Source: Escherichia coli (lineage in GTDB: Bacteria > Pseudomonadota > Gammaproteobacteria > Enterobacterales > Enterobacteriaceae). Taken from it: 64,000 bases of DNA. This document shows, in pieces, positions 338 to 22,994 of the stretch (positions within the stretch are counted from its first letter, which is position 1; each line of letters starts with the position of its first letter). The position numbers and the translations under genes are program-made. The notes below the pieces were generated by a model that was given only the letters and a program-made list of their open reading frames with translations, was not told the origin of the DNA and ran no database searches. The stretch lies in NCBI RefSeq assembly GCF_003334765.1, contig NZ_QOWT01000002.1; one strand, given 5' to 3'.

Positions 338-2337
338 ATTCACTACGTCCGGAATTATTAGAACTGACACCACAGGCACTGACGGCGTTAAGCAATGCCG
401 GTTTTGTTAAGCGCAGCCTTAAGGAACTGGAAAATGGCAACGTCCCGGAAATCAGCCATGAGAACGGCGCTTTAATCGCCACCTTCAGTGACGGTGTCCG
501 TACCCAGCTGGCGAACGGCCAGGCACTGAAAGAGGCTCAGTGCACCTGTGGGGCCAGCGGCATGTGCCGTCATCGCGTGATGCTGGTGTTAAGTTATCAA
601 CGACTTTGTGCTACCGCCCAGCCTGCGGAAAAAGAAGAAGAGTGGGATCCGGCAATCTGGCTGGAAGAACTGGCTACCCTGCCCGATGCCACCCGCAAAC
701 GCGCGCAGGCGCTGGTCGCTAAAGGCATCACCATTGAGTTGTTCTGTACGCCGGGCGAAATTCCCTCTGCCCGCTTACCGATGAGCGATGTGCGTTTTTA
801 TTCCCGCAGCAGCATTCGTTTCGCCCGTTGTGATTGTATTGAAGGCACTCTTTGCGAACATATCGTACTGGCGGTACAGGCCTTCGTCGAGGCCAAAGCG
901 CAGCAAGCAGAATTTAACCATTTAATCTGGCAGATGCGCAGCGAACACGTCACATCATCTGACGATCCGTTTGCCAGCGAAGAAGGCCAAACGTGTCGTC
1001 AATATGTTCAGCAATTAAGCCAGGCATTATGGCTTGGCGGCATCAGCCAGCCGCTTATTCACTACGAGGCCGCTTTCAGCCGCGCGCAGCAAGCGGCGGA
1101 ACGCTGCAACTGGCGATGGGTGAGTGAATCGCTACGGCAACTGCGCGCCAGCGTTGATGCCTTCCACGCCCGCGCAAGCCATTATCATGCCGGAGAATGC
1201 TTGTGTCAGCTTGCCGCATTAAACAGTCGATTAAATTGCGCACACGAAATGGCGCAGCGCGACAGTGTTGGTGAAATTCCTCCCATGCCGTGGCGCACGG
1301 TCGTTGGCGCAGGCATTGCCGGAGAAGCAAAGCTTGATCATCTGCGGCTGGTGTCTTTAGGTATGCGTTGCTGGCAGGATATTGAGCATTATGGTTTACG
1401 CATCTGGTTTACCGATCCCGACACCGGCAGTATTTTGCACCTTTCGCGCAGTTGGCCGCGAAGTGAACAGGAAAACTCACCGGCAGCTACGCGTCGGCTG
1501 TTTAGTTTTCAGGCTGGCGCACTGGCGGGCGGGCAAATTGTTTCACAAGCAGCAAAACGCAGTGCCGATGGCGAGCTGCTGTTAGCTACCCGCAACCGCT
1601 TAAGCAGCGTTGTGCCGCTGTCGCCTGATGCCTGGCAAATGTTGAGCGCGCCGTTACGCCAGCCGGGCATTGTGGCTTTGCGGGAATATTTACGCCAGCG
1701 TCCCCCCGCCTGCATACGGCCTCTTAATCAGGTCGATAACTTATTTATTCTGCCGGTCGCTGAGTGTATTTCGCTCGGTTGGGATAGCAGCCGCCAGACG
1801 CTGGATGCGCAGGTAATCAGCGGCGAAGGTGAAGATAATCTGCTGACGTTATCACTGCCAGCCTCAGCCAGCGCGCCTTATGCCGTTGAACGCATGGCGG
1901 CGCTTTTGCAACAAACAGACGACCCCGTGTATCTGGTTTCTGGCTTTGTCAGTTTTGTTGATGGGCAATTGACACTGGAACCACAGGTAATGATGACAAA
2001 GACTCGTGCCTGGGCGCTGGACGCAGAAACTGCGCCTGTGGTGGTATCACTACCTTCTACCAGCGTTCTGCCTGTGCCGTCTACTGCTCATCAGTTGCTG
2101 ATGCGCTGCCAGGCGTTACTTATTCAACTGCTCCATAACGGCTGGCGCTATCAGGAACAGAGCGCTATTAGTCAGGCAGAGTTGCTGGCGAATGACCTCA
2201 CCGCGGTGGGTTTTTATCGGCTGGCACATGTGTTGGCACAATTTCGTAATACAGAAAGCGAGGCACGGGTAGAAGCAATGAATAACGGTGTTTTGCTTTG
2301 CGAACAATTATTCCCCATGCTTCAGCAACAAGGATGA
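334..2337 (+). CDS. yehQ: SWIM zinc-finger protein YehQ, function unknown
   Basis: Long ORF; ATG at 334 overlaps yehP stop (ATGA); two CxC-Xn-CxH motifs. Start 310 vs 334 uncertain. Confidence 0.8.
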   Translation: MNSLRPELLELTPQALTALSNAGFVKRSLKELENGNVPEISHENGALIATFSDGVRTQLANGQALKEAQCTCGASGMCRHRVMLVLSYQRLCATAQPAEKEEEWDPAIWLEELATLPDATRKRAQALVAKGITIELFCTPGEIPSARLPMSDVRFYSRSSIRFARCDCIEGTLCEHIVLAVQAFVEAKAQQAEFNHLIWQMRSEHVTSSDDPFASEEGQTCRQYVQQLSQALWLGGISQPLIHYEAAFSRAQQAAERCNWRWVSESLRQLRASVDAFHARASHYHAGECLCQLAALNSRLNCAHEMAQRDSVGEIPPMPWRTVVGAGIAGEAKLDHLRLVSLGMRCWQDIEHYGLRIWFTDPDTGSILHLSRSWPRSEQENSPAATRRLFSFQAGALAGGQIVSQAAKRSADGELLLATRNRLSSVVPLSPDAWQMLSAPLRQPGIVALREYLRQRPPACIRPLNQVDNLFILPVAECISLGWDSSRQTLDAQVISGEGEDNLLTLSLPASASAPYAVERMAALLQQTDDPVYLVSGFVSFVDGQLTLEPQVMMTKTRAWALDAETAPVVVSLPSTSVLPVPSTAHQLLMRCQALLIQLLHNGWRYQEQSAISQAELLANDLTAVGFYRLAHVLAQFRNTESEARVEAMNNGVLLCEQLFPMLQQQG

Positions 2338-2415
2338 AATAGTGCTTTTTACTAAGAGTTCTACTCCAGTTCCGGACTGCTCACGCCACGGTATTAGGCA
2401 TATTCTATATAGCCC

Positions 2416-2438
2416 CTGGTGAGAGTCACCAGTTTCTT
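2416..2438 (+). terminator. Probable intrinsic terminator after yehQ
   Basis: CTGGTGA / TCACCAG stem followed by TTTCTTG. Confidence 0.5.
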
Positions 2439-2461
2439 GATTAAATAAAATGGAGTTTTAC

Positions 2462-2923
2462 ATGAAGGCTTTCAATAAGCTGTTTTCCCTCGTTGTTGCA
2501 TCTGTTCTGGTTTTCTCTCTTGCTGGCTGCGGTGACAAAGAAGAATCGAAGAAATTCAGCGCCAATCTGAACGGCACTGAAATTGCCATTACCTATGTCT
2601 ACAAAGGTGACAAGGTGCTTAAGCAATCTTCTGAAACCAAAATTCAATTTGCCTCCATTGGTGCAACCACCAAAGAAGATGCTGCCAGGGCACTTGAGCC
2701 GTTAAGCGCCAAATACAAAAACATCGCGGGTGTTGAAGAAAAATTAACCTATACCGATACCTACGCGCAGGAAAACGTGACTATCGATATGGAAAAAGTG
2801 GATTTTAAAGCCCTGCATGGTATTTCAGGAATCAACGTTTCTGCTGAAGATGCCAAAAAAGGTATCACTATGGCGCAAATGGAACTGGTGATGAAAGCCG
2901 CTGGTTTTAAAGAAGTGAAATAA
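2462..2923 (+). CDS. yehR: Lipoprotein YehR (DUF1307)
   Basis: Signal peptide with lipobox LAGC; start at second in-frame ATG. Confidence 0.85.
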   Translation: MKAFNKLFSLVVASVLVFSLAGCGDKEESKKFSANLNGTEIAITYVYKGDKVLKQSSETKIQFASIGATTKEDAARALEPLSAKYKNIAGVEEKLTYTDTYAQENVTIDMEKVDFKALHGISGINVSAEDAKKGITMAQMELVMKAAGFKEVK

Positions 2924-2929
2924 TCTGTC

Positions 2930-2954
2930 GGCGGCCATGTTTCGCATGGCCGCC
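2930..2954. terminator. Shared hairpin between convergent yehR and yehS
   Basis: 10-bp GC stem GGCGGCCATG / CATGGCCGCC with 5-nt loop; no clear U-tract on either strand. Confidence 0.45.
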
Positions 2955-2963
2955 ATACCCGTC

Positions 2964-3434
2964 TTAGCTTTTCTTCACATGCTGGCGCGCTGCCAGTCCA
3001 CGCAGAAAATAACGTAAAAATTGATCGCCGCATTCGCGGAAGTTTTTATGATCCGGTGCACGCATCATCGCCGTAATTTCCGGCATCGAAACGCGGAACT
3101 GCTGTTCGGTGAGGATCGCCAGAATGTCATCGGTTTTCAGCGAAAACGCGATGCGTAATTTTTTCAGCACGATGTTGTTATTAATGCGACGTTCCGGCTC
3201 CAGTGCCGGAGCAGACTCATCCTTGCCGCGTTTTTCATAAATCAGGCCATTGAGGAATGACGACAAAACAATGTCCGGACAACGCTGAAAACCCTCTTCG
3301 TCTTCTTTACGTAGCCAGACGGCGATCTGTTCCGCGGTGGCTTCGACATTACCCAGCGCCAGAATACGCACCAGGTCATTATTATTGGCTTTCAAAATGT
3401 AGCGCACGCTGCGCAGAATATCGTTACTTAGCAT
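2964..3434 (-). CDS. yehS: DUF1456 protein YehS
   Basis: ORF in track; start chosen at MLSNDILRS. Confidence 0.8.
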   Translation of the reverse strand: MLSNDILRSVRYILKANNNDLVRILALGNVEATAEQIAVWLRKEDEEGFQRCPDIVLSSFLNGLIYEKRGKDESAPALEPERRINNNIVLKKLRIAFSLKTDDILAILTEQQFRVSMPEITAMMRAPDHKNFRECGDQFLRYFLRGLAARQHVKKS

Positions 3435-3480
3435 GAGGCCTTCAGGTGTTGATGAGGCAAAAAGCCATTTTAGCAGTCTT

Positions 3481-4200
3481 TTACAGGCCAATCGCCTCTT
3501 TTAAGCTTTTCAGATAACGGCGGCTGACCGGCACGGTTAAGCCATTACGCAAAATCAACTCGGCCTGGCCGTTATCTTCCAGACGAATCTCCTGTAAATG
3601 CGCGAGGTTAACCAGATACTGACGATGGCAGCGCAGTAGTGGTGTACGACTTTCCAGGGTACGTAATGTCAATTCGGTAAAGCCCTCTTTCCCTTCGTGG
3701 CTGGTAACGTAGACACCGCTCATCCGACTGCTGACAAATGCCACATCTTTCATTTGCAGCAAATAAATCCGACTATGCCCAGTACAAGGGATAAATTTCA
3801 GCGCCTGTTGATTTTCTGGTAACAGCGAAACATCCTGCTTGCTGCGTTCCTGCCGCAAACGCGCCAGCGTTTTCTCCAGTCGCGCTTCATCAATTGGCTT
3901 CAGCAGATAATCAAAGGCGTGTTCTTCAAAGGCTTTAATGGCGTATTCGTCAAACGCGGTGAGAAAAACAATATACGGACGATGTTCCGGGTCGAGCATC
4001 CCCACCATTTCCAGACCACTGATGCGCGGCATCTGGATATCGAGAAACAGCACATCCGGGCGCAGTTTATGCACCGCGCCGATCCCTTCCACGGCGTTTG
4101 AACACTCACCAACGATTTCAATATCGCTCTGCTCCTGCAAAAATACGCGCAGGTTCTCCCGTGCTAACGGTTCATCATCGACAATTAAGACTTTAATCAT
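3481..4200 (-). CDS. btsR: LytTR-family response regulator BtsR (YehT)
   Basis: Receiver domain ([10 protein letters not shown]) plus LytTR C-terminus; start overlaps btsS stop. Confidence 0.9.
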
Positions 4201-5882
4201 GCCTCGTCCCTCCATGGTAGTCGTAACGTTATTCGGGTGTAACTATCAGGCTCACAGGCGACGCTTATCCCATAGTCATCGCCAAACCGTTCACGTAAAC
4301 GCTTATCCACCAGATTCATCCCCAGCCCACTGGCATTGGTTACCGGTTGATACAAACCGGCATTGTCTTCGATCTCCAGCATTAAATGTTGCCCCTCACG
4401 TCGGGCGCTGATTGCCACTCGCCCTGTATCCAGCAGTTGTGATGTCCCATGTTTAATGGCGTTTTCCACTATCGGTTGCAGGGTAAACGCGGGCAATTGC
4501 TGCTGGGATAATTCTTGCGGAATAGCAATGTTGACCTGCAACCGCGACTGGAAGCGCGCCTTTTCAATTTGCAGATAAGCATTCACATGTTCAATTTCGT
4601 CGGCGAGAGTAACAAACTCCGAAGGCCGCTTTAAGTTTTTGCGGAAAAAAGTGGAAAGATACTGCACCAGCTGGCTGGCCTGTTCGCTGTCGCGACGGAT
4701 CACCGCTTTAATGGTGTTAAGCGCATTAAACAAAAAATGGGGATTCACCTGGGCGTGAAGCAGTTTGATCTCTGACTGGGTGAGCATCGCTTTTTGCCGC
4801 TCATATTGCCCGGCAAGGATCTGCGCCGAAAGCAGTTGCGCAATCCCCTCGCCCAGCGTGCGGTTGATTGAACTGAATAAACGGTTTTTGGCTTCATACA
4901 ATTTGATGGTGCCCATCACCCGCTGATTTTCACCACGCAACGGAATTACCAGCGTCGACCCCAGTTTGCATTGCGGATGCAAAGAGCAACGGTAAGGTAC
5001 TTCGTTGCCATCAGCGTAGACCACTTCACCGGTTTCAATCGCTTTTAAGGTATAAGTCGAAGAAATCGGTTTGCCGGGTAAATGGTGGTCGTCACCAATT
5101 CCGGTAAAGGCTAGCAATTTCTCTCGATCGGTAATCGCGACTGCACCAATATCCAGCTCCTGATACAGCACCTGTGCCACTTTCATGCTGTTCACTTCGT
5201 TAAACCCCTGGCGCAAAATGCCTTCCGTCGAGGCCGCCACTTTCAGCGCAGTGGCAGAAAAAGCTGAAGTGTATTTTTCAAACATCGCGCGTTTATCGAG
5301 CAATATACGCATAAACAGCGCCGCGCCGACGGTATTGGTGACCATCATTGGCGCAGCAATATTACTCACCAGACGTACCGCATCTTCATAAGGTCGGGCG
5401 ATCGCCAGGATGATCAACATTTGCACCATTTCAGCGACGAACGTGACGGCACCGGCGGTAATGGGGTTAAAGACTTTATCAGTGCGCCCGCGACGGATCA
5501 GGATGCTGTGTACCAGGCCGCCGAGCAATCCTTCAACGATGGTTGAGATCATGCAACTTAGCGCGGTCATGCCCCCCATCGAATATCGATGTAAGCCGCC
5601 GGTCAGACCAACCAGCCCACCGACGACCGGACCGCCGAGTAAGCCGCCCATTACCGCGCCTATCGCACGGGTATTGGCAATAGAATCGTCAATGTGCAAC
5701 CCAAACCAGGTGCCCATGATGCAGAAGATGGAAAAGACGATGTAGCAGAGAAATTTATGCGGCAGACGAACCGTGACCTGCATTAACGGTATGAATAATG
5801 GCGTTTTACTCATTAACCACGCAATGACTAAAAAAACGCACATCTGCTGAAGCAGCAGCAACACCAGATTAAAATCGTACAT
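4197..5882 (-). CDS. btsS: LytS-type sensor histidine kinase BtsS (YehU)
   Basis: N-terminal multi-TM domain, GAF and His-kinase regions; start at MYDFNLV. Confidence 0.9.
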
Positions 5883-6103
5883 ACCCGCAAACCACACTTC
5901 CCTTTAAAACGCGTAACATACATTGCCTGCGTTTAACTTTCTTTGAACTCTTGCAGAAAAATGAGAATTCGTGAGTACGATCACTCAAAATCGCCTGGCA
6001 AAAATAAAATCACCCTATAGATGCACAAAAAACGGGCAAAACTACCTGGTTCGCAAAACTGCGTCTAAAGTTAAACCGGGACCTCGCGAGCAAGGGTGAG
6101 ACG

Positions 6104-6835
6104 ATGGCGCTTTACACAATTGGTGAAGTGGCGTTGCTTTGTGATATTAATCCTGTCACGTTACGCGCGTGGCAGAGGCGTTACGGATTGCTGAAACCGC
6201 AACGGACAGACGGCGGTCATCGGCTGTTCAACGATGCCGATATTGACCGGATCCGCGAGATCAAACGCTGGATCGACAACGGCGTGCAGGTCAGCAAAGT
6301 TAAAATGCTGCTCAGTAATGAAAATGTTGATGTGCAGAACGGCTGGCGCGATCAGCAAGAAACATTACTGACTTACCTGCAAAGCGGCAATCTACATAGC
6401 CTGCGAACGTGGATCAAAGAGCGCGGTCAGGATTACCCCGCCCAGACACTCACCACACATCTGTTTATTCCTCTGCGCCGACGGCTTCAGTGCCAACAAC
6501 CGACTCTCCAGGCGCTGCTGGCGATCCTCGACGGCGTACTGATCAACTACATCGCCATTTGTCTGGCTTCGGCACGTAAAAAACAGGGTAAAGATGCGCT
6601 GGTGGTTGGCTGGAATATTCAGGATACCACCCGTCTGTGGCTGGAGGGCTGGATTGCCAGTCAACAAGGATGGCGCATTGATGTCCTCGCCCACTCGCTC
6701 AATCAACTACGCCCTGAACTATTCGAAGGCCGTACATTGCTGGTGTGGTGCGGTGAAAATCGAACCTCCGCCCAACAGCAGCAACTCACCAGTTGGCAAG
6801 AACAAGGCCATGATATTTTCCCACTCGGCATTTAA
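6104..6835 (+). CDS. mlrA: MerR-family transcriptional regulator MlrA
   Basis: 243 aa ORF with N-terminal MerR HTH; recognised sequence. Confidence 0.9.
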   Translation: MALYTIGEVALLCDINPVTLRAWQRRYGLLKPQRTDGGHRLFNDADIDRIREIKRWIDNGVQVSKVKMLLSNENVDVQNGWRDQQETLLTYLQSGNLHSLRTWIKERGQDYPAQTLTTHLFIPLRRRLQCQQPTLQALLAILDGVLINYIAICLASARKKQGKDALVVGWNIQDTTRLWLEGWIASQQGWRIDVLAHSLNQLRPELFEGRTLLVWCGENRTSAQQQQLTSWQEQGHDIFPLGI

Positions 6836-6894
6836 TGATTCGTTAACAAATGCGCTTTACTGTACAATCCTTTCGTTAACATAAGGAGTGCATT

Positions 6895-7002
6895 ATGCGC
6901 ATAGCTAAAATTGGGGTCATCGCCCTGTTCCTGTTTATGGCGTTAGGCGGAATTGGTGGCGTCATGCTCGCAGGTTATACCTTTATTTTGCGTGCTGGCT
7001 AA
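6895..7002 (+). CDS. yohO: Small membrane protein YohO (35 aa)
   Basis: Not in ORF track; read by eye. AAGGAG 7 nt upstream of ATG; single hydrophobic helix; 3-prime end overlaps yehW antisense. Confidence 0.7.
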
Positions 7003-7714
7003 GCGCCTGCACCAGCCTTTCAAACAGGCGGTCTGCGATGATCGCCGCCAGTGCCACCAGTAACGCCCCCTGGATCACATACGCGGTATTAAATCCGCTA
7101 AGCCCGATGATGATGGGCGTACCCAGCGTGCTGGCCCCTACCGTTGAGGCGATCGTCGCCGTACCAATGTTGATAATCACCGAAGTTCGCACGCCCGCCA
7201 GAATCACCGGAGCCGCCAGCGGTAGCTCGACCTTACGCAGTCGCTGACCACGACTCATTCCCATACCTTTCGCAACTTCTGTCACGCTGGCATCAATCGC
7301 TCCCAGCCCGGCAAGTGTCGCCTGCAGGACGGGCAGCACACCGTAAAGGATCAAGGCGATAATCGCTGGTTGCAGACCAAAGCCGATCACCGGAACGGCG
7401 ATCGCCAGCACTGCGACGGGCGGAAAAGTCTGTCCAACGGCGGCAATAGTTTCCACCAGTGGGCGAAATTCCGCGCCCCACGGGCGAGTGACAGCAATTC
7501 CGGCACCAGTGCCAATGATCACCGCAAACAAACTCGAAATTCCCACCAGCCAGAAATGAGCCAGTGCCAGAGCTGCAAAACTTTCTTGCTGATAAACGGG
7601 TCGTGGCAGTTGTGGGAACAAGGCAGCAAACAGCGGCTGGCTGTAAGGCAGCCAGAAAATCAGCGCCACAAACAGAGCAATGAGCCAGAACAGCGGATCG
7701 CGCAACATCTTCAT
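6983..7714 (-). CDS. yehW: Osmoprotectant ABC transporter permease YehW
   Basis: 243 aa polytopic permease ORF in yehZYXW order. Confidence 0.9.
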
Positions 7715-16149: not shown

Positions 16150-16322
16150 GATGAGCATTCAGATAGTGGTTCACGCGCACGGGTTGCGCACCGCCGGAGT
16201 AAGGATTTACTGAGGCTAGCGACGCCATCATAACGAGCAAAAAGTGCGATCGTCAAAGGAGAATCGTGAGGAAATGCTGCATTGCTGACATTTACGCCAG
16301 CAATGCAACGTCAAAGAACTTT

Positions 16323-20439: not shown

Positions 20440-20640
20440 TGGCGCAAGGAGCGCGCAGGGGGCGGCCAATCGCCGCCGCCCCCTGCACCCCCGGGCTCTG
20501 GCGAACAAAATCGCCGCTGCGCGGTGCCCTCGACTTATCCCTTACGGCTACCGGGTCGGGCGCGAGGTAACATCCCTGTAAAACGCGCCCTCAGCCCACA
20601 TCCATGTGGGCTGCCCCGGCCTTCAGGGAACGCCTCGGCA
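20440..20640. repeat. GC-rich structured intergenic element with strong hairpins; not a canonical REP
   Basis: 12-bp GC stem near 20455-20486 and palindrome near 20593-20614, in AT-rich flanks between yohP and dusC. Confidence 0.45.
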
Positions 20641-20717: not shown

Positions 20718-21665
20718 TTAGAGTTTCTCGATATCAATTGCCTGAATAGCCCTTGCAATATCAGGGGAATTATTCAACACCCGAACATGCTGAAATAATT
20801 CCGTTGCTTCATCGTATTCTTTACGCAAATAACTCAACCACTGTTTAATCCGCGCAACGTGATATAACCCGGTATCGCCCTGCTTTTCCAGACGGGTATA
20901 TTTTTGCAGCAAAGCAACCACCTCCGGCCACGGCATTCGCGGTTCGTTATATTTTACCACCCGGCTCAGGTTGGGAATATTGAGCGCCCCGCGACCAATC
21001 ATCACTGCGTCGCAGCCGCTGATCGCCATGCATTGTTGCGCGCTCTGCCAGTCCCAGATTTCACCGTTGGCAATCACCGGAATATTCAGCCGCTGGCGAA
21101 TATCGCCAATCGCCTGCCAGTCAATATGCTCCGCGCGGTAACCCTGCTCTTTCGTCCGCCCATGCACCACCAGCTCCGTAGCGCCAGCCTGTTGAACCGC
21201 ATCGGCGATTTCAAATTTCTTCTCACCGCTGTCCCAGCCCAGACGCACTTTCACGCTGACGGGCAAATGCGCCGGTACAGCTTCACGCATCGCTTTTGCA
21301 CCCTGGTAGATGAGTTCAGGATCTTTGAGTAACGTCGCCCCGCCGCCGCTACCGTTAACCGTTTTCGACGGGCAGCCGCAATTGAGATCCACGCCCCAGG
21401 AACCTAACTCCACCGCACGGGCGGCGTTCTCTGCCAGCCATTGTGGGAACTGACCTAACAACTGCACGCGCACCAGCGTACCAGATGGTGTCCGGCTGGC
21501 GTTTTGTAGCTCAGGGCAAATGCGATGAAAGACTTTTACCGGCAGCAGTTGATCCACCACGCGGACAAACTCGGTGATGCACAGATCGTAGTCGTTAACT
21601 TCGGTCAGCAATTCACGCACCAGAGAGTCAAGCACTCCCTCCATCGGTGCCAGTAACACACGCAT
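20718..21665 (-). CDS. dusC: tRNA-dihydrouridine synthase C
   Basis: Dus-family TIM-barrel sequence; start at [11 protein letters not shown]. Confidence 0.9.
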
Positions 21666-21867
21666 ATCATCACCCGCAAAAAAATGAGGCGCTATGTTAG
21701 CGCCTATGGTCAGCGGATTAAAGGTCTGCAAAGAGGGATTGCTGCAAACTGCAATCCCTCTCTATGCTTGATGTATGCCTGAGTTCGCTGCGCATTGCGT
21801 AATGCCGGGGAGCGAAAAAATAAGCGCTGATTTCTTAATGTGATCGGTAGCACGTTTTACGAATTAA

Positions 21868-22994
<1,127 letters not shown>

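Follow-up and report, generated by a model that had tools for sequence, protein, structure and literature searches.

A perfect, single-copy inverted repeat in the divergent spacer between dusC and yohJ of Escherichia coli

Results

Organization of the dusC-yohJ spacer

The divergently transcribed genes dusC and yohJ lie on a 64,000-nucleotide stretch of the E. coli contig NZ_QOWT01000002.1 that we analyzed as a whole (hereafter the window). Their ATG codons, at 21665 on the - strand and at 21904, respectively, are separated by a spacer of 238 bp whose sequence is exactly that of E. coli K-12 MG1655, which the window as a whole resembles; adding 2208720 to a window position gives the position in U00096.3. 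An inverted-repeat search located within this spacer the hairpin AGAGGGATTGC-tgcaaact-GCAATCCCTCT (21732-21761), with arms of 11 nt that are 100% complementary and lie 8 nt apart. Measured from the ATGs, the hairpin is found 67-96 nt upstream of dusC and 143 nt upstream of yohJ. An earlier note, made from the letters alone, had described a perfect 11-bp hairpin with an 8-nt loop at this position, and the repeat search and the sequence agree with it in structure, in the distances to both genes and in the identity of the flanking genes. The hairpin carries no annotation in the sequence record, and searches of the accessible literature returned no paper for its sequence and no match for yohI together with yohJ. 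The features of the locus are listed in Table 1.

We compared the dusC loci of 80 species. Two conserved modules stand out, and the hairpin sits between them, in the fast-evolving middle of the spacer. On the dusC side, the arrangement CTTTAAT-N17-TAnCAT-AGCGCCTC-T7 is kept in most genera of the Enterobacteriaceae regardless of which gene lies upstream. The proximal dusC promoter shares its sequence with a terminator-like palindrome, AGGCGCTAacaTAGCGCCT (21687-21705, - strand), which is followed by T7 (21678-21684), ending 20 nt before the dusC ATG. The element reads as a promoter with a GC-rich discriminator and, at the same time, as an intrinsic terminator. The 5′ arm of this palindrome has decayed in Enterobacter and Leclercia, where the -10, the 3′ arm and the T-run remain. 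A promoter nested in an insulating terminator upstream of dusC is possibly of more interest than the hairpin itself.

The module on the yohJ side consists of a CRP site, mapped by Footprint-seq (PMC12871828), and a YieP operator, both of which keep an unchanged sequence all the way from Escherichia to Klebsiella, Kosakonia and Enterobacter. The conserved element TTAATTGTATGATGAAT matches the YieP motif atTTGTaTGAcaAAT (PMC7642389). The CRP site is centred at -36.5 of the yohJ transcription start site (TSS), an unusual position. The two operators, the yohJ promoter and the dusC promoter within the terminator-like palindrome make up the functional parts of the spacer.

Table 1. Positions of the features at the dusC-yohJ locus (window coordinates unless another record is named).
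Feature	Position	Strand	Remarks
Proximal dusC promoter	21677-21723	-	-35 TTTAAT 21717-21722, 17-nt spacer, -10 TAACAT 21694-21699, start ~21687
Hairpin-bearing spacer segment	21724-21793		only in genomes without the mhb cluster; alignable within Escherichia only
Extended stem, - strand RNA only	21729-21764	-	11 Watson-Crick pairs plus G.U, A-U and U.G
Left arm AGAGGGATTGC (+ letters)	21732-21742	-	3′ arm of the stem in - strand RNA
Loop, tgcaaact on +, AGUUUGCA in - strand RNA	21743-21750	-	8 nt
Right arm GCAATCCCTCT (+ letters)	21751-21761	-	5′ arm of the stem in - strand RNA
CRP site TGTGAtcggtaGCACG	21839-21854	+	conserved across genera as TGTGATCGGTAGCAC
YieP operator AATTGTATGATGAAT	21866-21880	+	overlaps the yohJ -10 (TATGAT)
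mhb cluster, example	1214-7320 of locus L083		TR01, NZ_CP033605.1

Transcription starts and ends near the hairpin

Published maps of transcript ends were converted to window positions. Kim et al. 2012 (PMC3415461, supplementary file 2) list a dusC TSS at v2 position 2228507, with 21 reads and a 5′ UTR of 100 nt. This start corresponds to 21765 on the - strand, 4 nt from the stem, and theirs is the single dataset that shows it. The same study places the yohJ TSS at 21883, which is independently confirmed by a dRNA-seq list that contains no dusC TSS and by Table S5 of PMC10469882. In that table, the columns of which we assigned from the EHEC locus numbers and known K-12 promoters, dusC starts are given 10 nt (K-12, RegulonDB 10.5) and 22 nt (EHEC, Cappable-seq) upstream of the ATG, and rightward K-12 starts appear at 21773 and 21789, both downstream of the hairpin. 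The 22-nt dusC start fits the -35/-10 pair that is conserved across genera. The distal start at 21765 is preceded by a poor -10 (CATACA) and a poor -35, and a promoter scan found nothing there at 9 of 12 matches.

The earlier note had held that an occurrence that was both unique and outside any transcript would speak against the hairpin. The hairpin does occur once only, but by the one TSS map that shows the distal start it spans +5 to +34 of a leftward RNA. With respect to the conserved proximal dusC promoter it lies at about -45 to -74. Thus, the hairpin is probably both at once: part of a weak distal transcript and upstream of the main dusC promoter. Any RNA begun at 21765 must cross the terminator-like element with its T7 run (U7 in RNA) to reach dusC. 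Term-seq (PMC7815308) shows no 3′ end in the dusC leader or at the hairpin.

Predicted folding of the RNA

In - strand RNA, the repeat is predicted to fold into a stem of 13-14 bp at -22.1 kcal/mol (z = -6.2; none of 200 shuffles does as well). The corresponding + strand fold reaches -19.9 kcal/mol, and the - strand fold is the stronger one because three extra G.U/A-U pairs form. If the TSS of Kim et al. 2012, which is missing from two other datasets, is used, 1-4 unpaired 5′ nt precede the stem. The whole leader from 21765 is predicted to form a 5′ stem-loop and a terminator-like stem-loop (-45.2 kcal/mol, z = -5.4); beyond the 5′ stem, this 100-nt leader consists of a 26-nt linker and then the terminator-like hairpin with U7. 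An sRNA-like product composed of the 5′ stem-loop, the linker and the terminator was considered and rejected, as the leader has neither an Rfam match nor a Term-seq 3′ end.

A terminator scan lists the hairpin on neither strand, and a U-tract is absent from both, as the earlier note had observed. The hairpin matches no Rfam family, and it displays neither that nor the compensatory changes by which a conserved structured RNA would be recognized.

Chance expectation, copy number and distribution

The window contains two perfect stems of 11 bp or more whose loops measure 3-12 nt, where 60 first-order Markov simulations predict 0.13. The chance expectation of such stems is about 5e-4 per 238-bp spacer and about 10 per 4.6-Mb genome. 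With some ten chance stems per genome, perfection alone is therefore no evidence of function: the perfection of the hairpin is locally unusual and no proof that it has one.

When searched with a 40-nt query, the hairpin was found in 4921 of 5426 complete E. coli genomes, in one place each (median 1, maximum 2). No second related site was detected in E. coli genomes at E ≤ 10, and no copies were found on plasmids, which bears out the view in the earlier note that the repeat is not REP-like. It is absent from about 505 complete genomes (~9%), and 805 of the 4921 positive genomes carry an internal mismatch in the 40-mer, so that about 16% have a substitution in or beside the hairpin. Outside the species, the hairpin is restricted to Escherichia; among the dusC loci of the 80 species it is not alignable in other genera, and in Klebsiella and Raoultella a mere GCTGCAAAGC...TCTCTATGCTT trace is left at the hairpin site.

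Sequence variation within Escherichia

Among 83 metagenomic contigs, 56 have the perfect hairpin, 13 carry G21728A, which is outside the 11-bp stem, and 14 carry a stem substitution, namely: C21752T (6 contigs), A21754T (4), G21741A (2) and G21751A (2, joined by A21731G). None of these 14 contigs has a compensatory change in the stem. In the 71 metagenomic E. coli spacers that were compared site by site the loop is invariant. The stem and the adjacent dusC-proximal spacer each have 0.14 polymorphic sites per nt, compared with 0.09 for 21773-21830 and 0.027 for the yohJ promoter.

The repeat is imperfect in three sister Escherichia species, where 2-5 positions of the 11-bp core are non-Watson-Crick, the loop measures 9 nt and the predicted energies are -6 to -16 kcal/mol. 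E. coli differs from them at the neighbouring positions 21734 and 21736, and both differences perfect the repeat. The three species group together in a dusC tree, which leaves the direction (perfecting or decay) unpolarised. Sister Escherichia (loci L001, L003 and L006) also have 35 nt extra, e.g. GGCAGGCACGCTTTCTGTTGCAAAAAAGCAGATCT, around 21775-21778, just upstream of the distal dusC -10; this insert supplies a TTGCAA -35-like hexamer that is missing in E. coli.

Across 10 distinct variants, no compensatory double change was found in the 11-bp core, and mismatches are tolerated. Selection on the - strand RNA structure had been suspected from the repeat of E. whittamii, which looked wobble-compatible, and was rejected on the 10-variant tally, in which wobbles and mismatches split evenly between the strands. 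The sequence variation gives no sign of measurable selection to keep the pairing.

A 6.1-kb mhb/gentisate cluster at the same site

Four of the genomes that lack the complete hairpin were examined, namely: O157:H7 TR01, TT12A, N96 and KY177. All of them have a 6.1-kb mhb/gentisate cluster between dusC and yohJ, comprising mhbM, maiA, a fumarylacetoacetate hydrolase gene, gtdA, mhbT and a divergent gene for a LysR regulator. mhbM is present in 612 genomes. In about 9-11% of complete E. coli genomes, O157:H7 included, this 3-hydroxybenzoate/gentisate (mhb) cluster replaces the interval from 21706 or 21724 to 21793. It exists as two divergent alleles (at least 99% and 90-95% identity), with some copies on plasmids, and it adjoins dusC in many species of Citrobacter, Salmonella, Klebsiella, Raoultella and Pseudocitrobacter; in the first four of these genera it is found at the very site that it takes up in E. 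coli. No integrase, recombinase or mobile genes flank it.

On the left, the cluster usually joins at 21706 (O157 type) or 21724 (KY177/E69/Citrobacter type), and on the right at about 21793; neither hairpin arm is kept. The segment 21724-21793 shows no similarity to the cluster, with alignment scores within the range of shuffled sequences. That the hairpin is a remnant of the mhbM 3′ end or of another part of the cluster was rejected, both local and positional alignments remaining within the shuffle range. A different junction occurs in O157:H7 TR01 (NZ_CP033605.1, L083 1196-1213), which is of K-12 type through the left arm and 3 loop nt and continues with O157 cluster sequence. This junction in the loop is unique among the 5426 genomes, and is either a real breakpoint inside the palindrome or an assembly artefact.

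Other hairpins in the window

A second stem at 16278-16307, between yohC and pbpG, had been called similar in the earlier note. It exists, with 10 bp and a 10-nt loop, but its context is unrelated to that of the dusC hairpin: it lies on the - strand, 17-46 nt downstream of the yohC stop codon (16324), at -24 kcal/mol, and upstream of the pbpG promoter (pbpG TSS 16221). It is probably a 3′-end hairpin of yohC that has nothing to do with the one upstream of dusC. The pbpG leader (16154-16234, - strand) matches the Rfam Peptidase-S11 RNA motif at 72.8 bits.

A further hairpin, ATGCCTGC-ctgtat-GCAGGCAT followed by TTTTCA (21959-21986), is found inside the yohJ ORF, at a position where Term-seq maps a 3′ end (2230706, window 21986; Adams et al. 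2021). This end implies a yohJ RNA of about 104 nt that is terminated prematurely. Over the same hairpin, Rfam returns a sub-threshold RyhB match (22.5 bits vs. a gathering score of 55) that is probably due to chance. In addition, a perfect 12-bp GC palindrome, GCAGGGGGCGGC / GCCGCCCCCTGC, with an 8-nt loop (20455-20486) is located between yohP and the 3′ end of dusC, within about 200 nt of GC-rich sequence, and is unannotated in MG1655.

Discussion

Given that no constraint is detectable and that about 9% of E. coli genomes do without the hairpin, its likeliest status is that of a lineage-specific palindrome. We put the probability at about one half that the hairpin is such a palindrome, in single copy, and that it contributes at most in a minor way to the protection of an mRNA 5′ end. 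In the RNA begun at 21765, the repeat would fold into a 5′-terminal stem-loop of 13-14 bp with 1-4 unpaired 5′ nt. A single-stranded 5′ end is required by RppH as well as by the 5′ sensor of RNase E, and mRNAs are stabilised by structure at the 5′ end (reviewed in PMC3997798). By analogy with ompA and papA, the stem-loop may hinder RppH as well as 5′-end-dependent entry by RNase E, which would make the transcript longer-lived. The share of the distal transcript in DusC expression is probably small, because the strong U7 terminator-like hairpin must be crossed and dusC has a conserved proximal promoter of its own. The hairpin is best seen as an evolutionary accident with a minor RNA-level effect at most, rather than as a dedicated regulatory device.

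It is also possible, if more doubtful, that the repeat is a purely neutral DNA palindrome, which arose by chance or by templated quasi-palindrome mutation, and that the 21765 start is transcriptional noise. The ten or so perfect stems expected by chance in a genome, the variants without detectable constraint, the absence of the hairpin from part of E. coli and from all other genera, and the distal TSS that two other datasets do not reproduce all agree with this, and the differences at 21734 and 21736, which both perfect the repeat, are the signature expected of a template-switch mutation. On the other hand, a primary 5′ end has been mapped at a distance of 4 nt from the stem, which makes it probable that the RNA hairpin forms in some transcripts, and the dusC tree does not tell perfecting in E. 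coli from decay in the sister clade. A role at the DNA level, as the operator of a putative dimeric transcription factor or as a supercoiling-driven cruciform, is improbable. The 8-nt spacer and GC-rich arms of the hairpin would be unfavourable to cruciform extrusion, despite the perfect dyad symmetry that recommends both versions. The centre of the hairpin (21746.5) is at -59.5 of the proximal dusC promoter (~21687), which is near a class-I activator position, and at -136.5 of the yohJ promoter; yet the true operators of this spacer, those of CRP and YieP, are invariant across genera, whereas the hairpin cannot be aligned outside Escherichia, matches neither the YieP motif nor the CRP consensus, has yielded neither another copy nor a related site at E ≤ 10 in E. 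coli genomes, and has half-sites in which substitutions segregate freely. The promoter regions of E. coli show a statistical enrichment of inverted repeats (PMC6060812), which also favours an operator or a cruciform. A YieP operator had been suspected at the hairpin because YieP represses yohJK, and was rejected since the motif matches 21866-21880 instead; a CRP operator was likewise rejected, the CRP site being at 21839-21854 and the hairpin being unconserved outside Escherichia. We see a slim chance that the dyad serves, in E. coli only, as the operator of a putative regulator or as a supercoil-sensitive cruciform coupling dusC (tRNA-dihydrouridine synthase) to the divergent yohJK exporter, or else that it is a natural case of a quasi-palindrome perfected by template switching.

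The segment that gives way to the mhb cluster, where this is present, includes the hairpin, and TR01 switches to cluster sequence within the loop, as would be expected of a scar or recombination hot spot of cluster gain or loss, be it an attachment-like core (11-8-11) or a deletion junction. This explanation is very unlikely, and is largely refuted by the junction sequences: the TR01 junction is one in 5426 genomes, typical cluster genomes diverge at 21706 or 21724 and carry neither arm, the segment does not resemble the cluster, which has no integrase or mobile genes beside it, and sister Escherichia species without the cluster already have the repeat. An island attachment site, as suggested by TR01, was rejected on the unique junction and the different breakpoints of the other cluster genomes. 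There remains the stable stem on both strands, which could belong to an intrinsic terminator or to a repeated extragenic palindrome of the REP/BIME type. The chance of either is negligible, given that there is no U-tract or terminator-scan entry on either strand, that the flanking genes are divergent, so no gene ends there, that Term-seq has no 3′ end at this position, and that a genome holds one copy. Taken together, the dusC hairpin is real and ordinary, and is not a hidden regulator, a repeat element or a recombination site. The spacer in which it lies is also the site of a 6-kb presence/absence polymorphism, that of the mhb/gentisate cluster, in E. coli.

Several known systems invite comparison with the hairpin. 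The YieP operator (motif atTTGTaTGAcaAAT) and the CRP operator (TGTGA-N6-TCACA) resemble it in their dyad symmetry and lie in the same 238-bp region; they differ from it in being invariant from Escherichia to Klebsiella and Enterobacter and in having experimental support, and the hairpin matches neither motif. Quasi-palindromes in E. coli are subject to templated mutation, as described by the Ripley model. The hairpin is like such sites in that the sister repeat is imperfect and two neighbouring E. coli differences perfect it, but two substitutions are too few to tell a templated event from independent mutations, and their direction is unpolarised.

Perfect inverted repeats of E. coli and their cruciform-forming potential were mapped genome-wide by Miura et al. 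2018 (PMC6060812). The dusC hairpin, which is perfect, has an 11-bp unit and an 8-nt spacer and is located in a divergent promoter region, has exactly the properties of their non-terminator class with R ≥ 8 and S ≤ 8. That study offers statistical enrichment only and gives individual repeats no function.

A parallel to the reading that we prefer, of a lineage-specific palindrome that at most helps a little to protect an mRNA 5′ end, is provided by the 5′-terminal stem-loops of ompA (hp1) and papA, which stabilise E. coli mRNAs (Emory, Bouvet and Belasco 1992, as cited in review PMC3997798). The dusC-side hairpin differs from these in that its TSS comes from a single source, its pairing is neither conserved nor compensated, and its transcript meets a terminator-like hairpin before the coding region. 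It is like them in its predicted stability and, if the start of Kim et al. 2012 is used, would also be like them in beginning 1-4 nt from a primary 5′ end, with less single-stranded 5′ RNA than RppH and RNase E would need to attack efficiently. If this reading is true, the hairpin would be one more case of the well-understood protection of mRNA 5′ ends that ompA and papA exemplify, here on a minor transcript of a non-essential tRNA-modification gene.
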